A stretch of 64,000 nt of DNA from Okamejei kenojei. Its lineage: Eukaryota. Numbering within the stretch: position 1 is the stretch's first letter; the number at the start of each line of letters is the position of its first letter. The notes beneath the pieces were generated by a model, which was not told the DNA's origin, made no database searches, and saw only the letters and a list, made by a program, of their open reading frames with translations. Below are positions 1 through 64,000 of the stretch, piece by piece. A program made the position numbers and the translations under genes. Location: positions 32,240,001-32,304,000 of the forward strand of contig CM069137.1 of the NCBI GenBank assembly GCA_035221665.1. The letters are read 5' to 3'.

Positions 1-499
1 ATTGTCACCTTTACTGACGCTAGCTTTTTATTTTAATTTAATGTACCCAGCTGCCACAGTGTGATTCAAATTCAATGACTGCACACCACGAGTCTTGGGT
101 TCTGGATACCAGGCCAGATTATAATTTTAATTGATCGTCAGTTGTGCACCAGCTTGGTCACCATTCTGCACATCCCTGGTCTCATGAGCAAATGAATCTG
201 CAACACGCAGTTCAACAGGAATAACGTCAAATGGCATTTTGCCTTGTTTGGATTCTCACAACCTACTACAGACCCAGTTTGGCAGCTTCAGGAGTCTGTC
301 AGCTTGGTTCACAGTGTCACTTCTAAGTGGCAATTGATAATGGACATTGAAGTTTCCCACACCTTAAGCATATGCTGTGATCTTGCTGCCTTCATTGGTT
401 CTTTCAAGTGGTGTTCAGCATGTAGGAATACTAATTTGTCAGAAGGATGATTCCTTACTCATATTCAACATGATTCCATAAGACTACATAGCCTGGAAT

Positions 500-1847
500 T
501 GTAAGATTTGAGAAGTTTTCCCTCATGCTACAATCAACAAAACCAAAGAGCTGCATTTTGGACATTTTTTATACGGGACTGGGACTGAGAGAGAGAAAAG
601 CTGCGGTCAGTTTTAACAAGGGATGTCACAATTAGTGGGGCCCAAGATGGCCGCGGGACCTCGTGACCAGCCACAAAAGCGAAACCCCACAGCCCAGTCT
701 CTGGGTTTCTGCAAAGTCACAGCCTGAACAATAGATGGATATTGGCCGTGCAGAAACCCCTGAAACCAGGTGGAAGTCCAGACACTGGGGCGCTGACATC
801 AGCAGACATCACAATGCCCCAAGTCGACCTACATAGTTAATCTCGTTAAGGGGAGCACAATAGCCCATAGAAACCTACCTGGCCGGTGATGGGAAAACCA
901 GTTAAACCCATCACCTCTTATCGAGAAACAAATTAACAGACCGTCTAGCCATCACCGGTACTCCCGGACATAACGTAGAACAAAGAGAGAGCTCGAAAAC
1001 CCATCTTGTAAGCAAAGAGATCCCGAGATCTGGCGGGAGATGGGACGGGTCAGGATTAGAATAACTGGCCACGATTTTTGGGTTTAAGAAGGGAAAAAGA
1101 AAAAGGAGGGAGAGACAATAGGAGTCACTGAACGAATCTGGAGACTTGCAGAGAGAGAGAGGACACAGGACAGCGCTTAAAAGTACACGGTGTCTAGTGT
1201 GACACACACTCCGGCTGGAGTCCCCGCCACGTGGAAAGAAAAGGAATGCAGTAGGACCCCTGGGCGAGGTGAACCCCTGGGACCACCCAAAAGACCGAGA
1301 CGACCGCCGACGACCCTTCCACAGCCACCTAATCGGAGGAAGCAGCACGACCAGCCAGTAACTTCAGTAATCGCCCCATGGTGAGCATGTACCCCGATCC
1401 TGCACATCCTGGACATAGTTTAGTGTAGAGGGGAGGGGGTTATATTAACGTGGGTGTAAGTGTACATGTGTTGGCAAATTTTATGATGAGCCGTACATTC
1501 CCCATCCCACATTCGAGTATGGTATCGTAGTTATTGCGTCTATGATCCCGAAACAGGAACTGTAATTATGCATATGCCTTATAGAACTGTGTCAAAGTAT
1601 TCGTGTATCGTAGTCCCAACCGCTAAATAAAAGTTATTTTCCTGTTTAAACCCTGATCTTCAAATCTGGTCTGGTTGAACTTTCTGCACTATCAACGCTC
1701 CTGCAACTAAGTCCAGTGTCCAGAACCGTAGGGGGTGAGTGGGTCGAGCCACTCACGGGGAACCAGTGTGCGCGGCCTGGTTGAGGGACCAGAGCAAACC
1801 ACAGGGACCATAGGTCGGGCGAAAGCTCGATGCAGAAAACCCTTACA
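500..1847 (+). repeat. 5' LTR (1348 bp)
   Basis: Terminal inverted repeats TGTAAG...CTTACA. Followed 5 nt later by the PBS. The first ~375 bp match 8734-9109 at about 95% by eye. AATAAA at 1626-1631. Confidence 0.88.
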
Positions 1848-1851
1848 GATT

Positions 1852-3616
1852 ATGGCGATCACGAAGGGACGCTGGCAGCAGGACAATAGGGTGCCAGAAA
1901 AGGAGTTGAAGACTAGGGACGTAGTGGATGAGCGCATTGCGGACTATGTTTTTAGCAAGGTCAATATTACCAAACAGTGGATTTGTGATTTATTGGAGGA
2001 CAAGCGCCCACTGGATGCAGCGATCCGGTGGACGGCCAACAAAGCCCATAAGAAATCTGTAGAGAAGGCGGTCTGGCTGACATGTTATAAAAAACAGGTA
2101 CTGCTCTTGGACCGCGTGATTGTGGCGCAGGCAGCCCAGATCAGGGACCTTCTTGAGGAGGTAGAAAAGAAGGCCGCGGGTGGGCACCAGTTGATTGAGG
2201 CTCTGGACTCCTTAAACAAGGAGCGCCGGACCGTGACCAACCGCCACGAGGCCAGGGTAGAACCCATGGAGTGCCAGATCACTGAGGCCATGCTCAGTGA
2301 GGGCAAGCTCAGGGAGCAGTGCGCGTCCCTGAGCCGCCAGCTGGAGGCCCAGGAAGAGAACCTCAAGGGAGTTAGGGCAGCCTTCAAAATGGCTTTGGAG
2401 GACAGGTCGGAAGAGGCCGACCACGGGGCCTGCCTGCAGGAGATAGAGGGTCTGCGGAGTGCTTTAAATAAAGCAAGCGGGCTGGTCTACCTAATGAACC
2501 CCCCAGCGAACCAGTCGCTAGCGGTTGTGAAGGTCCCGGTTCCAGCCCTCAGAAAGACCATGGTGGCTTCGGCCCCCAAACTCCACGTCCCCCCTTGCTA
2601 CGAGGCATCCTGGGAAAGGGGTAGTGTAGGGGAGAGAGGCGGGGGAGCTCCCAGTCGAGGACTCGGCACCGGCGCCCATGTGCCCGGTCCTGGAAACCAG
2701 ACGGGGACCCACCGCGCCGAATGGGGACACCGGACCCATTCAAAGCGAGATCGTGGTGCCCCACAACTCCCAGCAGTTAAGGGCCATGATCAGGCATGTA
2801 AAGAAATTGTCCGAATCAGGGGACCTTTCACTGCATTTTAGGGAGGTTGAGCAAACCGCCGCAATCAACGGTTGCGACGAGGGAGAACGGGCAAAAATGT
2901 TGCTGTTCTCCCTGGACAGCTCAATCCTCCAATGCCTCTCAGATGAGAGTAAAAGAGGGACCAGAACCTACGTTTTCTTACGGGACGAGGTCCTGGAAGT
3001 TTTGGGGATGGACGGTGAGGGTCCATTTGCCCGATTGGGGAAGACCCTCCAGATGGAGGGAGAACCCCCAAAGGTTTTTTGTGGCGCGACTGTGGCCAGT
3101 GTATCAGAGCAGCTGCCCGCATGTCCCCGCGCGGGATGACCTGGTCGGGAATGGGAGAGCCCAGTGGCTCCAATGTTTGGTGTCAAACAGCCTGACGGCC
3201 GTCAGGGTAGCAGGCGAAGGCCTGGTTTGATCCCACAAATAGCACGGAGGAGGCGGTTTTGGACCGTCTCACCGTAGGGTATAGAAACACCCGGAGCACG
3301 TCTACCCGATTCGTAAAAGGGAAGGTGCATGTGGCGGACGCTACTGCACCGGCCCAAAAGGAGTGGCGACAGGGGGGTAGCCCTACCGCACAGTCCAAGT
3401 GTTTCAGGTGCGGTAAGGTGGGGCACTGGCGGAAGGATCCACACCAAGGAAGATAGGGTTGGCACCACCCTGCGCGCCGATATCCCAGTCAAGCCCGAGA
3501 TTATCGAATCGATGATCGAGGTGATGCGGTCCCTCATGGCCGCACAGGGGAAGGTGGCAGTCGCTTCCGGCTCCCCGGGTGCGGGGGGAGGGAGGGCACT
3601 GGACATTCCCCAATGA
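1852..3616 (+). pseudogene. gag: gag: N-terminal coiled coil, capsid-like region, zinc knuckle; frameshifted
   Basis: ORFs 1735-2841, 2678-3139, 2847-3230, 3259-3456 and 3329-3616 tile the region. MHR-like QMEGEPPKVF..RL. Knuckle CFRCGKVGHWRKD(P). Ends at TGA 3614-3616. Confidence 0.8.
1853..1870 (+). promoter_or_regulatory. Primer-binding site, tRNA-Arg(UCG)-like
   Basis: TGGCGATCACGAAGGGAC is complementary (one G:U) to the recalled vertebrate tRNA-Arg(UCG) 3' end ...GTCCCTTCGTGGTCG-CCA. Confidence 0.75.
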
Positions 3617-5720
3617 CATCAGCCCGCCTATCTGTGTCCGCTCCACTACGATGCATGCAAGAGGCGGCTTGTGGTGATGGTAGTGGAGAGGCAAAGGGGC
3701 AGTTACCTGGTGGACACGGGGGCTTCATGCCGAAACCCGAAAAAGGCACGGATCGGTCTGTCAGAAGTTAAATTCTTGGGTCTGACCATCCGCGCTGGGG
3801 AAAGGGCCATAGATAAGGCTAGGAGGGAGTCAGTACAGGAGTTGCCGATTCCCTGCACAGTAAGGGGTGTGAGGTCTTTTCTGGGATTGACCGGGTATTG
3901 CAGGGACTTCATCGAGGACTACGCGGCCACCGCAGCCACCGCAGCCCCGCTACTCCGACTCCGACACAAGGGAGTGGAGTGGTCTTGGGATGTGGGTTGC
4001 CTCAAGTTAAAAGGGGATCTGCGAACCGCACCAGCCTTAGGAGCCATAGATAGAGAGAAAGGGTTTTTTCTGGAGGTGGCAGCCAGTGGGGACAGCCTGA
4101 GTGCTGTGCTGCTGCAGGAGGGCACGGCAGGCTGCGACCAGCGGTGTACTCCTCCAGGGTGCTCACCGATGTGGAGAGGAGTTTCTCCAATTGCGAGAGG
4201 CACCTTTTAGCCACGCATTGGGCAGCAAAGCGGTTGTTAATCTTCACAGGGACCTCTCCCATCACTCTCCTCACCCACCACACACCCACCCAGATGCTTC
4301 TGGATGGAAGGATCAAGGTTGGGACTGTCAGCAGCGCCCGCATCGCGAGCTGGACCCTCCTCCTTTCACAGATGGATCTGAAGGTTGAGGGCCTGTGCGA
4401 GCCCAAGCTCGCGGCCAATTTGGTATATCCCGGAATGGCCCATCGGTGTTCCATGGAGGGGGTTTGGGACGTCGACATAGGTTTACGGGCTGGGATCCAT
4501 CCCACAGGCCGGGAGATCTAGGTGGACGGCTCCAGCACGGTGTCAGCTGGCGAACGACTCACGGGGTGTGGAGTTTATGACCCCGAGGCAGGCATTGCCT
4601 TGGCGGTTCAGCTCCCCAGCACCATGAGAGCGCAGCAGGCCGAGCTGTCCACAGTGGCATACGTCGTTACCCACCCAGAGATGTTCCCAACCCCGTACAC
4701 GATCTGCTCGGACAGCATGTTCACCTGCAACTCGTGTACCGAGTACCTGGCCATCTGGTCCCATCGCGGATACACTTCCTCACGGAAGGCTTTTAACAGT
4801 TTAGCCCCTGCTAGAGCAGATCTTGGCCGCAGTAGGGGAGAGAGGGGAGGTCTTCATTCACAAGGTGAAGCCCATTCCGCCACAGAGCAACAGGCGGACG
4901 CCCTGGGGTGGGAGGATAGCAGCGACCAACATCGGGCGGACGCCTGAGGACTGTCCAAGCTCAGGATCCTGTTTTAAAAGCCATCCTCAGAGCGCTTAGT
5001 AAGGGCGAGCAGGTAGAGGGTCTCTACAGAAAGGCGGCCCTCTCCGTAAAAGAAGGCATGCTCTTCCATGCCGAACAGTGGGTTGTGCCAAAGCAGCATA
5101 GGAGGGAGTTGCTCCAGCTGGCACACGAGGGTCCAGGGGCAGGGCACCCCAGACCGGAGGTTACGTGGCAGTGGAAAGAGCAGGCGGGATGGTGGCCGGG
5201 GCTTAGGGACGATGTCCATGAGTTCTGCGCCAGCTGCCTCGTCTGTGCTGCCAATAACCCAGAAAAGGAAAGCGCCCATGGGACACGTCAGGAGAGTGGA
5301 GGGACCTTGGCAGTTGATCCAGATTGACTACATCGGGCCCTTGCCCACCACCCAAGGAGGCTATAAGTACTGCCTCGTCCTGATAGATGTGTTCTCTAAG
5401 TGGGTGGAGGCTTTCCCCTGTAAGACAGCTCCGGCACTGGGTACTGCCAAGATCCTGGTCCGGGAGGTGTTCTCACGGTGGGGGCTCCCTCGGTTTGTGG
5501 AGTCTGACCAAGGGAGTCACTATAGTGAGAGGTAGGAGAGGCAGGAGCGAGAGGTAGGAGAATTAGTAATGGTTCGGAACTACGCTAGCGTAGGTAGTTT
5601 AGAACCACTCTACATTGGGCCCTACAGCGTTGTAGATAGAGCCAGCCCCATGGTCTACGCCGTGAAGATGCCCCGGCGGGTTAAATGGTTTCACATTAAC
5701 CAGTGCAAATCATGTAAGCC
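3617..5720 (+). pseudogene. pol: pol: protease fragment, RT thumb, RNase H-like tether, RNase H, integrase; with deletions
   Basis: YLVDTGAS is fused by a deletion (YxDD core lost) to NPKKARIG..VKFLG..VRSFLGLTGYCRDFI. Then LEVAAS..YSSRVLTDVERSFSNCERHLLA, VDGSS..AQQAEL..SDS, the IN zinc finger H..GH..CASC..C, IDYIGPLP..DVFSKWVEAFP..SDQGSH and GPY. Confidence 0.9.
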
Positions 5721-6393: not shown

Positions 6394-8241
6394 TATGGAT
6401 AAGTTTGGGGGAATAGTTTTAGACAAAGTTGATGCGTCCAGGATGCAGATGTGGGGTGCGGGTTGAGGGTCAAGAGGCCCGCCCGCAGAGGCGTTTAACA
6501 AAGCCCAGCGCTCCCCAAGAGGCTGGCTATACCATATTTTATCTGTTTTCTGGAGCGGAAGGAGGCTCCCAGGCTTGTGGGGTCCCCCTTCCCCCGATCC
6601 CGGCAAACGCCACTGAACTCATCACACGACCGCGCACAACCTCTCCCACAGTTCCGCTGGCAGTAGCACAGGAGGGCGAGTGCCCTAAAACCACTAAGGG
6701 GCCCGGGAATGGCCTGGTACTGATACCAACTGACCAGGTATTGTACCGGGGGTGCACTACGCGGTGGCCTCGGTGATCTTAAACCTCACCGAGGTGTGGT
6801 TGCCGGAGTGGTGCCCCAGGGAAACTGAAAGACTGTACCAGGTGCTACTGATTAACATGTTCCGGCAATTTTACGAGTTCGACCTTGCCAGCGTGGACAA
6901 GGAGAGCTTATATCACCAAGAGCCGGAGGACTGGGGTCGGACAGGGAGGCAAAAGAGGGGTGTAGTGAATGATGTGTTTACGGGCTTTAACACCCGGACA
7001 TCTGTGGTCAACGCTTTAGATAACATGGAGCTGCAGACACAGATTAACGGGTTAAAGTCGCAGTTGAAAGGCATCCTCACGGACGGGAACAAGGTCGCCG
7101 GGTCCGAGCTGCACGAGGACCAGGCGATGACACTACACCTGTGCAAGATCATCGCTGAGCTGGAAAGGCATGCCGGCGCAGTGAACGCAATGATTAGGGA
7201 AGATCGGAACGTGTCCGAATCAGGCAGCGCATAAAATGAGGTGTGCGTACTGTACGGGGCGGGATTGCTGGTCGAGGGCCACAGCAACCTCGAGGACCTG
7301 AAACAAGGATCGGTCCCATCCTGGATCAGTAATAAACACCTACAAGCGCTGCTACCCTTCCAGAACACCTCACCCCGTGCCAGCTCAGGTTAGCGTCGGA
7401 GGCGTACCCTGTTCCCGTAGATTGTGGCCAATCAAACCACACAATCATGGGAATAGTGGTGCGGATGCCGTTGTTGGGCAAGACGACAAAGCCCACACCA
7501 GTGTACAGGGTGGAGAGCATTGGAGTCATTCAGGGGGGAGCCCATATTCGCTATGCAGCGGTCCCACCGTACGTCATCCGCTGGGAGCAGTCGATGACGG
7601 GTACTGACCTCTCGGTGTGTCGGAGCCGGGGAGCATATATTATATTGTGTCCTCAGCACTTGAATGTCCTTTTGAAACAGCAGTGCGGGTTCAGGACTGT
7701 TGGCGCGAAGCCTATGAATTGTACCATGGAGGCAATGGCACAGGGCCATGTGCCGCCACAGGTGGCATACATAGGGGGTGGCACCTATTGTGTTACCACT
7801 GCCGCGCAGCACTATCGACACGGGCAGCATGGTTCGTGTCCGGTAAGGGACAGCAGCTTCTGTTTTAAACCCAGGGCAGAGGTTCAAGTGGCACAGCAGC
7901 GAATTGTCCCCATTCCTGAACCCTCCACGGTTCACCTAACTGTACAGAAAAACTTCACCGACCTTCAGCGATTTGTAGCGCATTTCGGGTACGCCATTCC
8001 CCCTCTCCCCGAACATCTCACCACCCTGTTAAAGGCAGTCGCCGTATCACAAAGGCACTTTTACGCCCTGGAGCAAAACACAAGAGAGATAGTGTCCGAG
8101 ATATTGGACATTGTGGTTCCAGCATGGTGGGACCTGGTCACCACTATCGAGGTCCCGTCTTGGGTTAGGATAGCGTCACACGCATTAGTTATTGTACAAG
8201 CAGGAATAGTGTTATATTTACTATGTGTGAAATATAAATGA
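6394..8241 (+). pseudogene. env: env: class I fusion glycoprotein with Mononegavirales F-like layout
   Basis: ORFs 6429-6776, 6752-7234 and 7447-8241. Early furin site RQKR at 6947-6958, followed by a fusion peptide and heptad repeat, a Cys-rich mid-domain (PPYVI..DLSVC..LCP..C..CV), a second heptad and a TM segment (ALVIVQAGIVLYLLCV). Start is approximate. Confidence 0.85.
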
Positions 8242-33911: not shown

Positions 33912-35640
33912 CATCAGGCAGCATCTCTGGAGAGAAGGAATGGGTGACGTTTCTGGACGAGACCCTTCTTCAGACTAGTCAGAGGAAGGGGAAACGGAAA
34001 ATATATACAGCAATGTGGAGAGATATAGAATAAATGAATGAAAGATATGCAAAAAAGTAATGATGATAAAGGAAACAGGCCATTGTTAACTGTTTGCTAG
34101 GTGAGAACAGGAACCTGGTGCGACTTGGGTGGTGCAGGAGTTACATGAAGTTAGATAAATCAATGCTCATTTATTATGGACGTTCAGTAACTCTACACCT
34201 CCATCCCCCACCAGGATGGCCTTAAAGTTCTCCGTTTCTTCCTCAAACGCTGAACCAACCAATTTCCCTCTACTAATACTCTCCTCCACCTAGCGGAGCT
34301 GGTCCTCACCCTTAACAACTTCTCCCTCGACTACTCCCACTTCTTCCAAATCAAAAGCATAGCATGGGCACTCACTTGGGCCCCAGCTATGCCTGCCTCT
34401 TTATAGGGTACATTGAACAATCCCCGTTCCAGGCATACACTGGCCCTATCACCGAACTCTATCTCCATTACATTGATGACTGTATCGGTGCTATCTCTTG
34501 CAGCCATGCCGAACTCATGGACTTTATTAACTTCACCACCAATTTCCATCCTGCACTTGAACCATTTCCAACACATCCCTCCCATTTCTTGATCTCATCA
34601 TCTCCTTTACAGGAGATAGACTATCGACCAACATCTATTACAAGTCCCACAACTATCTCGACTACACTTCTTCCGACCCTGCTTTCAGCAGATTCTATCC
34701 CCTACTCCCAATTCCATCTACGCTGTATCTGTGCCCGAGATGAGATGTTCCATACCAGGACATCCAAGATGTCCTAATTCTTTAGGCAAGGAGCATTCCC
34801 CCCCTCCTCTAATATGTCTCTGTAGTACCCTGCAGCTCTGCCTTGCTCCCCCTTTCCTTAGTCACAGCAGGGACAGAATCCCCATAGCCCTTACCTTCCA
34901 TCCCATTAACTGTCGCATATAACACATAATCCTTGGCCATTTTCGCCACCTCGAACCCACCACTAGTCACATCTTCCCATCTACAACCCTTTCCACCTTC
35001 TGCAGAGACCGTTCCCTCAACAACTCATCGCTTCCCAACCTAACCACCCTCTCCCAAGGTACCTTCACCTGCAACCACAGGAGATTCAACACCTGTCCCT
35101 ATATCCCCTCCCTCGACTATGTCCATGGACCCCGACAATCCTTACAGGTTAGACTGAGATTCACTTGCACCTCCAACCTCATCTACTGTATCCGTTGTTC
35201 AAGATGTACATTGGCCGATCATTTTGCCGAATATCTTCGCTCAGTCTGCCTGAACCTACCTGACCTCCTGGTTGCCAAACACTTTAATTCCCCTTCCCAT
35301 TCCCACACTGACCTTTCTGTCCTAAGCCTCCTCCATTGTCAGAGTGAGGCTAATCAAAATTTGGAGGAACAATTTTGCTTGGGCAGCTTATAACCCATTG
35401 GTATGAATATTGATTTCTCTAATTTCAAGTAACCCGTGCATTCCCTCCCTCTCCATCCCTCCCCACCCAATTCACACCAGGTTCCCATTCTCATCCAACA
35501 AATGGCTAACAATGGCCTGTTTCCTTTATCATCGTTACTTTTGAGCACATCTTTCATTCATTTGTTCTATATCTCTCTACATCACTGTCTATATCCCTGG
35601 TTTCCAGTTCCCCTTACTAGTCTGAAGAAGGACACAAAAA
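33912..35640 (+). mobile_element. Penelope-like element (RT, GIY-YIG, pLTR) preceded by an inverted pLTR
   Basis: MGTHLGPSYACLFIG..YIDDCIG; HFAEYLRSV..VAKHFNSPSH. Minus-strand pLTR at 33912-34170. Confidence 0.85.
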
Positions 35641-37645
35641 TCTGGAGTAACTCCGCAGGACAGGAAGCATCTCTGGTGAGAAGGAATGGGTGACATTTCG
35701 GGTTGAGACCCTTCTTCAGACTGGTTTGGGATAGGGGACACAAGAAATATAGACGGTGGTGTGAAGAGATAAATATCAATGAATGAAAGAAATGCAAAAA
35801 AGTAACGATGATAAAGGAAACAGACCGTTGTAAGCTGTTTATAGGGTGAAAATGAGAAGCTAGTGTGATTTGGGTGGAGGAGGGATAGAGAGAGGGGATG
35901 CTGGAGCTACCTGAAGTGCGAGAAATTAATACTCATACCACTGGGATGTAAGCTGCCCAAGCGAAATAGGAGATGCTGTTCCTCCAATTTGCATTTAGAC
36001 TCACTCTGACAATGGAGGAGACCAAGGACAGAAACATCTGTGTAGAAATGGGAAGGAGAATTAAAGTGTCCAGCAACCGGGAAATCAGGTTGGTTCACGC
36101 GGGCCGAAGGATGGTGTTCTGCGAACCGATCGCCCAGTCTGCGTTTGGTCTCGCCGATGTATAGGAGTCCACGTGAACAATGGATACAGTAGATGAGGTT
36201 GGTGGAGGTGCAAGTGAACCTCTGCCTAAACTGAAAGGATTGTCAGGGTCCCTGGTCTGAGGTAAGGGAAGAGGTATAGCGACAGGTGTTGCATCTTCTA
36301 TGGTTGCAGGGGAAGGTACCTGGGGAGGGGGTGGTTTGGGTGCGAAGGGATGAGTTAACCAGGGAGTTGCGGAGGGAATAGTCTCTGCTGAATGCGAAAA
36401 GGGGTGGATATGACAAAACGTGGTTAGTGGTGGGATCCCGTTGGAGGTGACGGAAATTTTGGAGGATTATTTGTTGTATGCGACAGCTGATGGGCTGGAA
36501 GGGGGACTCTGTCTCTGATGTGACTAGGGGGAGAGGGAGCAAGGCGAGAGCTGCGGGGTACCAAGGAGACACGAGTGAGGATCTCATCTACGATGGGAGA
36601 GGGGAACCCCCGTTCCCTCAGTGGGTTTGTAATAGACGTTGGTCAATAGTCTATTTCCTATGATGGAGACTGTGTGATCAAGAAAGGGGAGGGAGGTGTC
36701 GGAGATGGTCCAAGTAAATTTGAGTGTAGGATGGAAATTAGTGATGAAGTTGATGAAGTCCGTAAGTTCTGCATGGGTGCAGGAGGTAGCTCCGATGCAG
36801 TCATCAATGTAGCGGAGGTAGAGTTCGGGGATAGGGCCAGTGTACGCCTGGAACAGGGATTGTTCAATGTACCCTACAAAGAGGCAGGCATACCTGGGGC
36901 CCATGGGTGTGCGCATAGCTATGCCTTGGACTAGGAGGAAGTGGGGAGAGTCAAAAGAGAACTTGTTGAGGGCGAGGACCAGCTCCGCTAGGCGAAGTAG
37001 TGTTAGTAGGGGGAAATTGGATGGTTCTGCGTTTGAGGAAGAAACGGAGGGTTTTAAGCCTTCCTGGTGGGGGATGGAGGTTTGGAGTGACTGATCATCA
37101 TTGTAAAGATAAGGGAGTGGGAGCTCGGAAAATGGAAGTCATTAAAGAGACGAAGGGCCTGTGAGCTATCTTGGACATAGGTCAAGAGAGATTGGATCGG
37201 GGGGAGATATGATGTAGTCGAGGCATGTGGAAATCATTTCCATGGGACAAGAGAACGCAGAAACAATGGGTCTGCCAGGGCAGTTAGGTTTGTGGATTTT
37301 GGGGAGAAGGTAAAAACGGGCTGTGCGGGTCTGGGAAACGATAACGTCGGAGGCTGTGGAAGGCAGACAGCCAGAAGTGATGAAGTCAGTAATGGTGTTT
37401 AAAATTAAAGCCTGGTGTTCATCTGTGGGATCATGGTCCAAGGATAAGTAGGAGGAGATGTCTGAGAGTTGTTGCCTGACCTCAGCCCAGTAGAGGTCAG
37501 CAGGACAGACTATCACAGCACCTCCTTTGTCGGCGGGTTTGATTATGTCAGGGTTGCTGCAGAGTGAGCGGAGGGCTGTATGTTCAGAGGGGGTGAGGTT
37601 GGAGTAGGTAATGGGAGTAGAAAAGTTGTGATGGTTGATGTCACG
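35630..37645 (-). mobile_element. Penelope-like element (RT and GIY-YIG), degenerate
   Basis: NLTPSEHTAL..IIKPADKGGAV; FYLLPKIHK..PGRPIVS; MGPRYACLFVG..RYIDDC; EEQHLLFRLGSLHPSGMSI. Confidence 0.9.
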
Positions 37646-38950
37646 GGGCGGGGAGAGGGGGGGGGGGAGAGGGGGGGGGAGGGGGGGAGGGGGGAGGGAG
37701 AGAGGGAGGGGGAGAATGAGGGGGAGAATGAGGGGAAGAAGGAGAGAGAAATTAAATAGAAAGTCACATAAAGGCTGCAGTCTTAGTAAACAGTTGGAGT
37801 GTTGTTGACAGCAATTTAAGATAATGTCATCCATTATCCTTTCCATTAAACAGTGCCACTTACTTTAGGAAAGAGAAAATAACTTAAAATTAAGAATCAA
37901 GAATACAAAGAGAGAGTTAATACACATTAATTTAGTATTTTATCTTATGCAGATGTTTTTAAAAAAATCTCTCATTGTTAGCTGTATGGATCAAATGTCC
38001 AATAAATTCAGATTTAGCTCAACTAGTATCACTGTGTTGATCCGCAGCACAATTCAATCCATGATTCTGCATAAATTGAATCTCATTTAAGCAGTGCACA
38101 CAGATGGTTGGTAAGGAGTATCATAGATTTAAGGTACAAGAATCAAGGATTACGTTTGCGAAAGTGGATTGAAAGCCACATAACAGAAGGAGATTTAATC
38201 TGCATCCATCTTGTTTGATGATTGAATACCAAAAAGATAGGAACGTGTTCTATTTCATTTTCAGATGAAGAATTTCAACTGTTCTCAAAGAGCTGCAAGT
38301 TATTAATTATTCCACAGCCTTGTTACTCTTTCATTTGTCAGGGAACTATTTCAAATCTCGCAGAAGAGACTTATTGCAGTTAACTGAATGCTGGAATAGT
38401 TTTCCATGTTCAGTGTTGATAAGTAATTTTGTATTTTTGTATCCTTCTGCTATTCAGAACTGAAGACCTTAAAGAAAATAGTACGGAGCACGTTCTCTGC
38501 TGGCTAAAAATTAATGTACAATATGATCAACCAGCTAAAGGCAAAAGTCAAGGAAATAACAGAAGCAATTGTTTTCACACAAGCTTGCAGACAGAGGGAA
38601 GTCAATGGAAATGTTGCATCCCTTCTAGCATATCTATTAAAGGATTACAACATTGATCATCAATGATAGTAAAACAATATTGCTGACAGGTGAGTGGGAG
38701 CATTTGTGTGAAAGCCAAACAGTGTCTCATGCTGGCAAAATGGTGTTCATAGACTGCCTCCTTGTAAAGAAGCTCATCGTTTTATTTTCCATTTGATCAA
38801 ATTATTTGGGCATATACAAGGAGGGAATAAAAAAAGATTACTGCCTGTTCCAAATTATGAATGTGGTAAATTATGAGGAAGTTTGCAGGGGTCTACACAA
38901 AAATACTGGGCAATGATTCTAGGAAATGATTAGACTCACACATTGTGATT

Positions 38951-39099
38951 NNNNNNNNNNNNNNNNNNNNNNNNNNNNNNNNNNNNNNNNNNNNNNNNNN
39001 NNNNNNNNNNNNNNNNNNNNNNNNNNNNNNNNNNNNNNNNNNNNNNNNNNNNNNNNNNNNNNNNNNNNNNNNNNNNNNNNNNNNNNNNNNNNNNNNNNN
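38951..39099. other. Assembly gap (N run)
   Basis: Run of N next to a GA-rich tract. Confidence 1.
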
Positions 39100-40541
39100 G
39101 GGAGGAGAAAGAGAGGTAGAGGGAGAGAGGGGGGAGAGGGGGAGAGGGGGGAGAGAGGGGGAGAGAGGGGGAGAGAGGGGGAGAGAGGGGGAGAGAGGGG
39201 GAGAGAGGGGGAGAGACGGGGAGAGGGGAGAGATAGAGAGGGGGGAGAGAGGGAGAGAGAGCTCTAATAAGCCTGTGGGTGGCTCAATAGTATGAGTGAC
39301 ACTAATCTGCATCCTCCCTCTTAAAGAATTAAATGCAAATGAAAAACTACATAGTATGTGGCAATAAACTGGAGGAAGATCAAACATAGCCCAGGTACTT
39401 TACGGTGGGCTTACAAACACAACCAGCACGCATACGGTACAGTCCTGCATCTCCTCCCATCACTGGGGACAAACTCGGTGGTGAAATAGGTGTCGGAGAC
39501 TGAAACGGCAGTCCCGGGGATGAAACAGGAGATTTTGGCACAGATGGAGGTGGCGTAGCCATAAGCAAAGTAATCAAACCAGAAACAGGTTGTTCTGGTG
39601 CAGTCGGGCCGATGCTGCTGGATGTGGATGGAAGTACACTTGTGCAGTCAGGATAGTACGGAGCTGGCTCCTTCACAGGCAGGATATGTTGCTTATTACA
39701 TCTGTAGGTGCTGCCATCGGCATTGACCAAGTATGAACGTGGCTCGGAGGTGGTCGTGTCCTTTGTCAGTTTGCAGACGCAACACTTGACCCTCGGCTAG
39801 TGGTGGAAGGGCCGAGGGACAAGTGTTGCATTTTGTCATACCACCCTTTCTGAATGTCGCGCTTTTGTTGTAGTCTGGACTGGACCTCTGATGGTGGGAC
39901 CACTTGCAGAACTAGTGCTTGCTTCGCCAGAGGCAATGTGGCTCGAGTCTGCCTTGACATCAGATGCTGAGTGGGTGAAGCCAATATTGGGTTGCGGGAG
40001 ATGTTAAGCAGCTCCAGGTGCACATCTGAATTTGCTCTGTGGGATCATTCCATTAATTGTTTGTCAAACCTGACGGAAGGTTCAGCCAGTACATTCGACT
40101 GAGGATGTTCAGGTATTGTTTGCCATGCCACTCCGTGATGAACTAGTACTACAAGATGGCATTATCGTAAAAGGCCACAAGGCTGTAGTTCCTGCCTCAC
40201 TACACAGAAAGTATTTTGATGCTGTCCATGCGGGACACCCAGGCCAGAAGCAACTGTCCTGCGAGCAAAAAACATGTTTTACTGGCCTGGCATGACCGAT
40301 TACATTCAGGAGAAAGTGGAATCCTGTGCAGTGTGCAACAGTTTGGCACCACATCAACAAAAGCAACAACTTTTCTCACACCGGGCTCCTGCCCCTCCGT
40401 AGTCCATAGTGGCAACTGACATATTTGAGGGGCATGGCAAACAATACCTGGTTCTTGTCGACTCGTATTCTGGTTGGTTTGATATCGATCTTCTTAGTAG
40501 CCCCACTTCTCATGGGGTAGTTCAGAAGCTGGGGCGACATT

Positions 40542-40584
40542 TCTCCAACTGGAGGCGTGGGTTCGAATCCCACTTCTGACACCA
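40542..40584 (+). other. 43-nt copy of the 3' half of tRNA-Leu including CCA (extended PBS; not a tRNA gene)
   Basis: TCTCCAACTGGAGGCGTGGGTTCGAATCCCACTTCTGACACCA comprises the variable arm, T arm, acceptor strand and CCA. The 5' half is absent. Confidence 0.85.
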
Positions 40585-40677
40585 TGTAGGAAATGATCAG
40601 ACTCACACATAGTGATTAGAATCCATAGTCTTTTATTAGCAAATCTGTGGAGGAAAAACAAGGTGCTTCCGTCTCCA

Positions 40678-40776
40678 CGAGAGCGAGAGAGCGAGAGAGA
40701 GCGAGAGAGAGCGAGAGAGAGCGAGAGAGAGCGAGAGAGAGCGAGAGAGAGCGAGAGAGAGCGAGAGAGAGCGAGA
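40678..40776 (+). repeat. (GAGAGAGCGA)n microsatellite inside the Gypsy LTR
   Basis: Near-perfect 10-bp repeat. Confidence 0.95.
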
Positions 40777-42014
40777 GATCTCAAATAAGCCTGTGGGCGG
40801 ACGAATAGTATGAGTGACACTAATCTACAGCGATGAAGCAAAAGAAAAACACAAAGTCCTGGAATAATGTTTTGTAATCAAACTATTACAAAGTATTAGG
40901 TGAACCACAAAGAGTTTATTAAAACCTATGCAGAGAGAATAATACATACTGCAGCATTTGTTGTATCATCTTGCAGACTGCCGAGCTCAGGGGTGAACAG
41001 GGTTGTTATCAGTAACTGCATTCCTTACTCAAATCCCAGACTGGATTACATAGCACGGTGGAATGTGTATCATGCATAGTATATGTGGTGAAGGTTATAT
41101 TGACAGAGATAAATATCTACAAATAACTCAGCGGGTCAGGTATCAGCTCTGGAAAACATGAATAAGTAGGTGACACTTTGGGTCGGGACGCTTCTTCAGT
41201 CTGAATAAAGGTCCCAAACTAGGATTTCCAGTGATGCTGCCTGACCCATTGAGTTACTCCAGCACTTTATGCCTTTTTTTGTTAAGAGCATCAACAGTTA
41301 CTTGCAACTCCTCTCTAGTAATGAAGGAAGCTTAATTCAGGGAAACAAGCAAGGAAGCAAAATGTTCTGTCTGGGCATGGCAAGATCCAAGACTCCTAAT
41401 CTACAAATATTTGAATGCAAAAGTCTATCAACTATACAAGTGGTCCTTTTATAAATCAGAAATGTGAGAAATCTGAATGTGCACAATTCACGCCCAGGTG
41501 CTCTAAAGAAGCTTCAGTACATTGAATAAGTACAATTTATTTTACAGCTTCTAATAAATGGATCACAGCACATGAAATTGTGGACTCCTTGGAAGGTTCC
41601 CTCGCAGGCCATGTTTTATCTTTAGGTTTTATTCTATTCTTGAAGTGGCAATGCCATGATTATTTTTGTAATTCAAAGTGGTACATGTAACATGGAACAG
41701 TACGGACGATAGACACACAAAGCTGGAGTAACTCTGCGGGGCAGGCAGCATCTCTGGAGAGAAGGAATGGGTGACAAAGGGTCTCGACCCAAAACGTCAT
41801 CCATTCCATCTCTCCAGAGATAGTGCCTGTCCCGTTGAGTTACTCCAGCTTTTTGTGTCTACAGTATCTTCGGTTTAAACCAGCATCGGCAGTTCCGTCT
41901 TACACGTGATCTTACACACCATATATCCGAATTATGATGTTGTTAATTTCCTCTACGTACATGTCATCCAGATCCCTCCATACCCATATCCTGTCATTGG
42001 TTATTCACATATAT

Positions 42015-45800: not shown

Positions 45801-46368
45801 AAATCTAACTCTCTCTTGAAAACAAGGAGCAGCATGTGGGAGAACATTATAACAGTGAAGAAGTGGAATTGATAATGTTCTGAGCTTATATCTGTTTCAA
45901 ATCCCTAATTGGAGATGGCCAGCATCTAGCACATGTGGCACTAATATTTTGTAACTACCAGCCCAAGAACAATCTGCTTTGGCTTTATCGCATCAAATGG
46001 AAATTCACTTCTTCTGACTTCTAATGCCCCAAAAATCATGGTTAGTACACATTTCACCCAGGCCAGTGACCTGAACAGCACCAGCAAGAACTCCTTTGGG
46101 AATAAGCTAATGGCATAATTTTATTCTGAAGAGTCCAGACTCGAAACGTCACTTATCCATGTTCTCCAGGGATTCTGCCTGACCTTTAGACTTTCTACTT
46201 TAGACTATAGAGAAACAGCATGGAAACAGGCTTTTTGGCCCACTGAGTCTGCACCGACCAGTGATCACCCCGTACACTAACACTATCCTACATACCAGTA
46301 ACAACTGTACAATTTACCAAAGCCAGTTAAACTATAAACCTGTATGTCTTTGGAATGTGGGATGAAAC

Positions 46369-46924
46369 TTTGCGCCCCACCCAAGGTTTCCGTGCGGTTC
46401 CCGGAGGTTTTTGTCAGTCTCCATAATGGTCGAAAGTGGTTTCCGCTTCTTCTATGTTCCGGCGATTATTTCAAAAAATTCAAAACCGGCCGCGACTAAA
46501 AATAGGTTGCCGTTTTAAAAATCGGTAATTTTTTTAGTCAAAAGTCAGTTGCAATGCTAGTTGAAGGTGGTTGCCGGAGGTTGCAGGTAGTGGAAGGTAA
46601 GACCTTTTTTTCACCCAGTTTTATTCCACCAGGGAGGTCTTACCTTCCACTACCTGCAACCTCCGGCAACCACCTTCAACTAGCATCGCAACCGGCTTCG
46701 ACTAAAAAATTTACGATTTTTAAAACGGCAACCTATTTTTAGTCGCGGCCGGTTTTGAATTTTTTGAAATAATCGCCGGAACATAGAAGAAGCAGAAACC
46801 ACTTTCGACCATTAGGGTGACTGACAAAAACCTCCAGGAACCTCCGGGAACCGCACGGAAACCTTGGGTGGAGCGCAAATTCTCCAGAGGTTTCCGTTCA
46901 GGTTTCCTAAGTGGGACAGGGGCA
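46369..46924. mobile_element. Palindromic MITE, PIF/Harbinger-like; left tip missing; inserted in a SINE
   Basis: Arms 46369-46604 and 46636-46879 are near-perfect inverted copies. Right end AAGTGGGACAGGGGCA followed by TTA. Confidence 0.75.
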
Positions 46925-62450: not shown

Positions 62451-63425
62451 TTAATCAAATAAACAACAAACCCCTAAATCGGGGCCAGACATTATACTGA
62501 GCGGTACCCAGGATAGCTTCTGCGAATGTCGCAGGGGCGGCCAGAGGCTTGTTATAGAACCGTTGAAAGGTTTTTTCCCACTGGCCCAGCCCGCGGTGGC
62601 GAGAATGTGGTCCATGGGCACCTCCATGGCTCTCGCCGCTGATATGGATGCAGCCCTGGTGGAATGAGACTTAAAAATGTTAGTAGCAACTCCTGCTGCA
62701 TCCAGCACCACCCTGAGCCACCTGGCGATCGTCTGTGTAGTCACCCGATGATGCGGAGGTTTATGACTGATGAGGAGCCCCTGTTCCTTCATCCTGATAA
62801 CTCCAGTAACTCGGATGTAGTGGTGGAGATGGGTGACTATGCAGAGAGTGGCATCTACAGGGTACGCCCGAAATTCCAACTGCAGCCCATGCGCCCCTGG
62901 CCTGTGCTGTTTTAATAATTCTTTGACAAAGAAATTTATTTGACCAGGGGTGGCCACCATGCTGTCCAGTTGCAGTTTCTGTAACGTCTGGGCTCGTTGG
63001 GCTGTAGTCAGTGCCATAAGCATCACCACCTTGAGGGTGAGCTGTTTCAATGGTAGCTCATCTATTGGAGCCCAGCTCCTCAGTAGGGTCAGCACGATCC
63101 CCACATCCCACGTTACTGTATATCTGGGTCGTGGAGGATTGGTGTTGAACACTCCCCTCATTAGTTTAGACACCAGGTGGTTGGAGCCGACACCTATATC
63201 CAGGTATGAGGACAGCGCACTCCTGGCGCTGTTGATGGCACTGTAGCTGAGGCCAGCATCGAAATGGAGGCCTGCTAGAAACTCCAACACATCAGGTATT
63301 GTTGCCGAGTTGGAAGACTTGTTGGTCCGGGCACAGAATGCCTCCCACTTTCTGATTTGGGTGAGGTATTGTTTCCGAGTTGATTCTTGGCATGATGCGG
63401 CGATAAGGTCTATGGCTCTTAACAA
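62451..63425 (-). CDS. DIRS tyrosine recombinase (near intact; late frameshift)
   Basis: 324-aa ORF with LSYSAINSARSALS, TAQRAQT, FKSHSTRAAS and AGWAS. The catalytic TFQRFY segment is one frame off at a G3A6 run near 62575. Confidence 0.88.
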   Translation of the reverse strand: MLRAIDLIAASCQESTRKQYLTQIRKWEAFCARTNKSSNSATIPDVLEFLAGLHFDAGLSYSAINSARSALSSYLDIGVGSNHLVSKLMRGVFNTNPPRPRYTVTWDVGIVLTLLRSWAPIDELPLKQLTLKVVMLMALTTAQRAQTLQKLQLDSMVATPGQINFFVKELLKQHRPGAHGLQLEFRAYPVDATLCIVTHLHHYIRVTGVIRMKEQGLLISHKPPHHRVTTQTIARWLRVVLDAAGVATNIFKSHSTRAASISAARAMEVPMDHILATAGWASGKKPFNGSITSLWPPLRHSQKLSWVPLSIMSGPDLGVCCLFD

Positions 63426-64000
63426 GATGCCTGCCCGGATGAGTGGTCTTTCAGAACCTGCAGGCCACCAAGTTTAAATGACCATGGCAAGGATGACTGA
63501 CCCCCCCCCCCCCCCGTAATGGAGTGAGTAATCAATTTGGGATGTTTCCCAATCGCCATCCATGGTTGTTTTAAAATTTCTACAACCATCGGGTACCATG
63601 GTTGTGTAGGCCAGTCGGGAATGATCAATATGCCAGTTGCAGAGTCTAGTTTAATTTTCTGCAATACCCGACTGGTGAGGCAGAATGGGGGAAATGCGTA
63701 GCAAACCATTTCCCCCAATGGATAAAAACGCATCCATTGCTATTGCCCCAGGGTCTGGTTCCCACAACACATACGTTGGTATTCGATGGTTCAGCCTGGA
63801 CGCAAATAGGTCAATATCTGGTGTCCCAAAATGAGCTATAATATCTCCAAAATTTGGGGGTTCAACATCCACTCAATGTTGTCATTGAAGACACGTGACC
63901 TGGTGTCTGCCACTGAATTAAGCTTCCCAGGCAAATAGGTCGCAGTAATCCAAATATTTCTTTCAATGCACCAGTGCCAAATTGTATTAGCCAATTCATC
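63419..64000 (-). pseudogene. DIRS RNase H C-terminus and Dam-like methyltransferase domain, frameshifted
   Basis: IWHWCIERNIWITATYLPGKLNSVADTRSR; DIDLFASRLN; YAFPPF; ILIIPDWPTQPWY. Confidence 0.85.

Follow-up and report, generated by a model that had tools for sequence, protein, structure and literature searches.

The window analysed here, 64,000 nt of the genome of Okamejei kenojei, contains an LTR element in which the 5′ LTR is followed by sequence complementary to a tRNA-Leu and then by part of the integrase gene in the wrong orientation. The question that this locus raises is how an element with such a structure came to be made and inserted. The first-pass annotation had proposed a rare accident, in which reverse transcriptase read through an unmodified A58 of the primer tRNA, switched to plus-sense RNA and back at short homologies, and gave a product that was then integrated.

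As judged by its sequence, the element is a Ty3/Gypsy retrotransposon that has undergone internal deletion and inversion and that carries 43 nt copied from mature tRNA-Leu(CAA) (Table 1). Direct LTRs with TG...CA ends, a primer site and a polypurine tract mark it as Ty3/Gypsy, and its integrase piece maps at 62% onto the integrase (Integrase_H2C2/rve region) of a relative, L224, whose domains follow the order aspartyl protease, RVT_1, Integrase_H2C2, rve, the Ty3/Gypsy order with integrase last; the window's own 53-aa stretch gave no Pfam match. The 3′ LTR is identical to the 5′ LTR at 45 of 52 positions at its start and 30 of 33 at its end (both counted by eye), start and end each being one base off TGTA/TACA. 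The two LTRs also differ in the 10-nt microsatellite unit (39117-39252 versus 40679-40778). A possible placement is the Mag clade of Ty3/Gypsy, which is characterized by short LTRs and a tRNA-Leu primer. An LTR length of ~190-210 nt and the LTR ends agree with the Mag C row in the accessible part of PMC3601003, which serves as a lead only. Elsewhere in the window are three open frames of 301-369 codons (1732-2841 and 7336-8241 on the forward strand, 62451-63473 on the reverse), a decayed inverted repeat ~2.9 kb across (34179-37099; nested inverted arms, 78-88% complementary) and a near-perfect, MITE-like palindrome of ~520 nt (46364-46884; 93-95%).

Table 1. Features of the element and its flank (positions in the window).
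Feature	Position	Strand	Support
5′ LTR (TGTA...TACA), contains the 10-nt microsatellite	40585..40829	-	
43 nt complementary to the 3′ terminus of mature tRNA-Leu(CAA), from CCA to the foot of the variable arm	40542..40584	-	
Junction 1 microhomology, tRNA copy/integrase, 4-8 nt depending on the relative compared	40542..40546	+	20 relatives
Integrase, from the zinc-binding region to the beginning of the core; antisense relative to the element, with frameshifts and stops	40134..40546	+	
24-nt sense piece; overlap GA at its 5′ junction (junction 2), CCTG at its 3′ junction (junction 3)	40110..40133	-	
Source of the 24-nt piece, within the inverted segment	40427..40450	+	23/24
Integrase 3′ remainder and 3′ region, sense	39323..40113	-	
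Polypurine tract	39312..39322	-	sequence
3′ LTR (38951-39099 = N)	38918..39311	-	
Left flank, possible decayed 5-bp target duplication, weak	40830..40834	-	3/5 match 38913-38917

The tRNA complementarity was confirmed at 43 of 43 nt against the host tRNA-Leu(CAA) gene L094 plus CCA, and it includes the right base opposite A58 (T) and opposite the variable-loop C. Between 4 and 8 of the 43 nt are common to integrase, leaving a tRNA-only part of 35-39 nt. ARAGORN found no tRNA gene within the window and Rfam gave a chance match only, because the tRNA piece is too short. When the element is laid on a copy of its family, L257, its parts follow in the order antisense 4294-3885 (88% identity), sense 4185-4208 (100%) and sense from ~4410 (the alignment itself starting at 4438), which bears out both the antisense integrase segment and the 24-nt piece as an inverted copy of sequence within that segment, with one mismatch. 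From the point where the inversion begins to the point where the sense sequence resumes, about 117 nt of parent sequence are missing (114-123 nt in comparisons with 14 of 20 relatives). Microhomology is present at junction 1, as had been claimed; in comparison with 20 relatives it is TCTC in 15, the motif originally given, TCTCC, in 4 and an 8-nt overlap in L020. Junction 2 overlaps by merely GA (10/20 relatives), and the CCTG described at junction 3 was recovered with 14 of 20.

Mis-assembly was rejected as the source of junctions 2 and 3. A short-read contig from run X4, which may be the assembled sample and which extends 28 nt on the short side of junction 2, spans 40043-40161 with zero differences, at a depth of 93.3 as compared with 85.6 in the neighbour, indicating single-copy sequence. 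A contig from run X6, from another sample, joins a tRNA-like tail to integrase at a different place, corresponding to window position 40311. The inversion is likewise rejected as a multi-copy arrangement: it was present in 0 of 29 related loci and in none of 10 further members of the family whose primer match is long, and the other loci keep the normal order.

The supposed rarity of the event did not survive a survey of this one 2.76-Gb genome, with one primer tRNA and with samples taken from C1. An exact LTR-end CA followed by the 18-nt primer site occurs 1578 times in the whole genome, and 477 of these sites extend past 18 nt (any base followed by six more tRNA bases), which makes the window element one of a class with at least 477 members. 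An exact match to the initial 35 nt of the tRNA complement, with CCA, was found at 125 places; each of the 30 inspected lies behind an LTR-like end, from several families, and 26 of these ends are CA. Among the first 100 CA plus 18-nt sites on C1, taken as an unbiased sample, 45 were extended by an extension score whose threshold was reached at 0 of 20,000 random positions. A 3′ LTR lies within 7.2 kb in 27 of the 45 and is lacking from that distance in 18; the internal parts of the 27 paired copies measure 27-4113 nt, as compared with ~4310 nt in long copies. Target duplications of 5 bp (4-5 of 5 matching) flank 11 of the 13 extended copies whose TG and CA ends are clean.

We then consider how the tRNA tails are joined. 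Among 81 distinct extended copies the joined sequence is in the sense orientation in 45, antisense in 10 and unmapped in 26, at positions that range from ~360 to 4090 of the element; antisense joins are found also in 22 of 54 18-nt copies. An ungapped match to a close relative was available for 23 of the 81, and 17 of these joins are flush; microhomology of at least 3 nt is present at 10 of the 17, as compared with 8.6% by chance, while six further joins carry a few unexplained bases. In the 45 unbiased copies 11 end-points fall at 35-37 nt and nine at 42 nt; these copies give the fair picture, since in the pooled set the search pattern of 35 nt itself contributes to a peak at that length. The majority of extended copies finish at 34-48 nt, away from a modified base, and mid-copy switching or trimming must therefore be assumed.

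Just three pairs among the 81 share a junction. This bears on the proposal that a few founders with a long primer site were amplified as non-autonomous families, which would have inherited any mismatch at nt 19 of the primer match. Such amplification could account for L177 and L178, which share one 36-nt extension and junction (by re-mobilisation or segmental duplication), and for the tandem pair L042/L043, but dropping one of each pair still leaves 78 of 81 junctions, all four bases are present at nt 19 inside one young family, the joins are spread from ~360 to 4090 of the element, and the junction of the window element recurs in none of the 29 related loci. We regard amplified founders as highly improbable. 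Short tandem units consisting of an LTR end, the primer site and the tRNA tail, in which the tail runs back into the LTR end, were seen at L042/L043, L161/L162 and L006. L205 is a long copy in which a 24-nt extension (C opposite A58) is followed by leader-like sequence and then by ~2 kb of inverted gag-pol; being itself inverted, it is unsuitable as an orientation reference.

Some antisense sites are shared between copies of different families, three extended copies joining at 3478 and nine 18-nt copies at 3742. The nine (L138, L143, L152, L157, L188, L192, L198, L204 and L222) all use the same antisense integrase site. An amplified family was considered for them; their LTR ends differ, however, as do the downstream parts of the four that could be mapped, so that a hot spot is the more likely explanation, and the site is likely to be one at which priming is favoured. 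Taken together, the counts confirm that insertions read as tRNA-extended and wrongly joined are common in this genome, nearly all of them with a junction of their own.

The primer match of ~18 nt that the first-pass annotation took as usual is not the native state in the two families checked. Among 30 LTR ends of the window element's family, 15 have no primer site, 11 have a near-perfect 18-nt site (five of them extended, the window element included) and four have a match of 9-10 nt. All four of the latter run on into leader and gag. The long tRNA match is indeed abnormal for the family, as had been supposed. Twelve window-family copies with a long match were refetched; seven join deep inside the element and five have no reference match. 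A young sister family has 1007 exact LTR ends, of which the first 100 on C1 were taken; with 23 downstream pair members left out, the remaining 77 comprise 32 3′ or solo LTRs and 45 5′ LTRs. Native sites, with an exact run of 4-10 nt, follow 31 of the 45 5′ LTRs, while seven have the perfect 18 nt and seven are extended. Native copies with a partner LTR are more than 4000 nt long in 17 of 21 cases. The leader is kept by four of the seven perfect 18-nt copies (three are deleted) and by none of the seven extended ones. In L187 a 24-nt tRNA extension is rejoined in the leader, which is kept; this copy and the four perfect 18-nt copies show that tRNA-copied ends are not always accompanied by deletion.

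On these counts, the native primer site of both families checked is one of exact pairing with ~7-10 nt of the tRNA. Most 18-nt matches are thus themselves copies of the tRNA. A genomic primer site differing from the tRNA has thus been kept in 31 of 45 young 5′ LTRs and in four of four gag-retaining window-family copies, and tRNA-copied ends, whether perfect 18-nt or extended, make up 14 of the 45 integrated young-family 5′ LTRs. A primer site annotated as a perfect match of 18 nt can belong to the aberrant class.

The explanation first offered for the long copy, an unmodified A58, was not upheld. The base opposite A58 is T in 198 of the 477 extended copies and A, C or G in the other 279; among the first 100 of the 279 listed, A occurs 67 times, G 19 and C 14 (by eye). 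In the unbiased sample, nt 19 is mismatched in 25 of 45 copies as compared with 17 of 616 non-CpG neighbour positions (Fisher p 4e-22), the neighbours being somewhat favoured by the extension score and position 19 being unscored. Read-through of m1A by reverse transcription leaves mismatches (PMC4787781, in the part of that paper accessible). With 279 of 477 copies mismatched at exactly this base, as is characteristic of m1A read-through, A58 was in most cases not unmodified; it is likely that it was mostly read through while carrying m1A, with errors. The window copy, correct at both A58 and the loop C, is compatible with a modified as well as with an unmodified primer.

It could still be held that a rare tRNA without m1A58 let reverse transcriptase run on and gave a one-off product. 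The correct T in the window element and in 198 of the 477 is what this predicts, L373 (see below) is correct at 58, at the loop C and at 37, and loss of m1A58 causes read-through in HIV and MLV assays, according to the accessible part of PMC8599865. As a general rule the idea is refuted by the 279 wrong bases, and an event so common in the genome is not a one-off; moreover, the right base stands at 58 and at the loop C together in 8 of 37 copies, which is about the expectation for independence, so that no separate unmodified class is visible. We consider this explanation doubtful, though it deserves more weight than the other alternatives raised here.

Errors were seen at further tRNA positions. 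L086 and L175 copy the spliced anticodon, both with a wrong base opposite G37, and in six of the 81 copies the tRNA sequence ends one base short of G37 (two of the six form one tandem pair). At L373 (C7 near 5.54 Mb) an LTR-like end is followed by the complement of the entire spliced 87-nt tRNA-Leu(CAA) with CCA, matching at 84 of 87 positions, and one of the three mismatches is at G26. In the variable loop, C is present in 16 of 16 alignable gene copies, whereas the element copies read A in 24 of 37 and T in one; this mismatch is independent of isodecoder and of the base at 58. The gene set derives from 21 hits, 20 fetched loci and 16 alignable intron-bearing genes, and intron-bearing tRNA-Leu(CAA) genes, together with variants, are clustered at C13:62.99-63.22 Mb. 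In the accessible parts of PMC11417395 and PMC7969016, m3C at e2/47d is known for Leu-CAG and Ser, not for Leu-CAA. The variable-loop signal could reflect a new modification site or tRNA genes missing from the assembly, and we treat it as a lead.

The same copies bear on whether the tRNA sequence was acquired from genomic tRNA genes, or from tRNA pseudogenes made by LINEs, through recombination or gene conversion. A cluster of suitable genes does exist in the genome. These genes, however, are without CCA and carry an intron of 30-31 nt, whereas the copies begin with the CCA complement right at the LTR end (30/30 LTR-like, 26 of them CA), cross the spliced junction and show position-specific mismatches absent from the genes. 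L086, L175 and L373 contradict a gene source directly, and we give it next to no credence.

The extra sequence in the window element is thus best read as a reverse transcript of mature primer tRNA followed by template switches at microhomologies and integration, and in this respect the original proposal is supported. We estimate a probability of about 0.8 that, in the class as in the window element, synthesis of the first plus-strand strong-stop DNA continued into the primer tRNA and this strand then changed template at a short internal homology. In the normal cycle, as in yeast Ty1/Ty3, a tRNA-extended plus strand would be discarded; here it would often be rescued. The tRNA tail being unable to pair with the short primer site, it would therefore switch at a chance homology. 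Sense deletions would arise when the growing minus strand jumps onto the tRNA tail, and inversions when the tail finds its template in plus-sense RNA that the minus strand has still to copy. In the window element and in L270, L156, L198, L138, L143, L226 and L269 the last sense part begins again 3′ of the point at which the inversion starts (the relation is ambiguous in L192), consistent with a tail that primes ahead of the minus strand. The enzyme probably passes m1A58 with errors, and unmodified tRNA would not be required.

For the window element in particular, the tail may have primed at TCTCC, ~117 nt upstream of the minus-strand front, and copied ~410 nt of RNA. The next 24 nt would have come from a minus-sense template, either the strand itself by fold-back or minus-strand DNA, after which the strand would have joined minus-strand DNA at CCTG. 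Fold-back fits the position of the source of the 24-nt piece, inside the inverted part, and L226 has a similar piece of 36 nt; in L143, however, the sense piece lies outside the inverted part, so fold-back is not general and other templates occur. The homology at junction 2, 2 nt only, speaks against this scheme. Both LTR ends are intact, which argues that integrase inserted the product; later changes are possible, given a target duplication matching at 3/5 and LTRs ~88% alike.

Such later change is the basis of another explanation, in which only the tRNA copy is due to reverse transcription and the inversion and 24-nt back-copy were made by chromosomal break repair, through templated insertion of the polymerase-theta type or fork switching. 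Break repair typically leaves short templated inverted pieces that overlap by 2-4 nt, and the window element, which is old as judged by its LTRs and has a poor target duplication, would fit. It is nevertheless hard to reconcile with an inversion that starts exactly where the tRNA copy ends, with the recurrence of the layout in young copies such as L269 (LTR ends 100% identical) and L270, with the hot spots shared across families at 3478 (three extended copies) and 3742 (nine 18-nt copies), and with the antisense joins in 22 of 54 18-nt copies. We think break repair improbable, and return to template switching during reverse transcription as the preferred reading.

The individual steps have precedents. 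In the accessible part of PMC5371799, which reviews Lauermann and Boeke 1994 and 1997, the first plus strand of yeast Ty1/Ty3 extends 12 nt into the tRNA, is then displaced and builds up as a dead-end product, while a later, tRNA-free plus strand is transferred and the primer is not inherited. The elements described here resemble these in their short primer site and in a first plus strand that enters the tRNA, and the 31 of 45 native copies fit non-inheritance of the primer of the yeast type; unlike the 12-nt dead end of yeast, 18-87 nt of tRNA have been integrated here, mostly with deletion or inversion. In HIV-1 and MLV, the accessible parts of PMC8599865 and PMC13191261 describe a plus-strand strong stop at m1A58, a stop whose dependence on m1A58 has been debated for decades, with minor stops at 55, 54 and 37, and report that copying past A58 blocks completion and integration. 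Stops at A58 (the 18-nt class) and just before position 37 (the 49-nt class) are found here too; in contrast to HIV-1 and MLV, longer products have been integrated by the hundred, and read-through misincorporates.

Illegitimate template switches at short homologies, at or near the primer site, are shared with retroviral vectors. Vector work of the 1980s and 1990s described deletions with insertions and deletions anchored at the primer site, as rare single-cycle products. Such aberrant strand-transfer products, together with tRNA sequence in cloned retroviral DNA, are reportedly the subject of Pathak and Temin 1990, Parthasarathi 1995, Pulsinelli and Temin 1991 and Colicelli and Goff 1986. The insertions reported here differ from vector products in forming a frequent germline class, found in many LTR families, and in carrying a modification signature that can be read. 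That signature, with mismatches at m1A58, G37 and the variable-loop C, is like those of tRNA modification mapping (PMC4787781, PMC8062790 and PMC11417395, in their accessible parts), except that in place of the laboratory a natural reverse transcriptase acted in vivo and its errors are stored in the genome.

A literature search, which did not extend to older subscription papers or Repbase, found no genomic class of this kind and no such record of tRNA modification, and the accessible parts of PMC3187697, PMC7197481 and PMC7472051 contain nothing on tRNA-extended integrated ends. On this evidence, which is weak as evidence of absence, the steps are known, while their frequency, the integrated outcome and the readable modification signature appear unexpected. 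It is likely that a by-product of replication hitherto regarded as a dead end is often integrated and records host tRNA modifications. We would go further only at even odds, to the joint proposal that the insertions preserve a fossil record, open to dating, of germline m1A58, m1G37 and an unreported variable-loop m3C of tRNA-Leu(CAA), readable from assemblies across species and ages, and that rescue of the tRNA-extended plus strand is a main route of replication failure in Ty3/Gypsy families with short primer sites, giving about a third of new insertions. The class offers a mechanism for the many deleted and inverted LTR elements of such genomes. In its hundreds of natural germline insertions, the frequency of stopping or passing at A58 and the base inserted there can be seen, without any experiment, as they occurred in vivo, and comparison of old with young insertions would make past germline tRNA modification testable.
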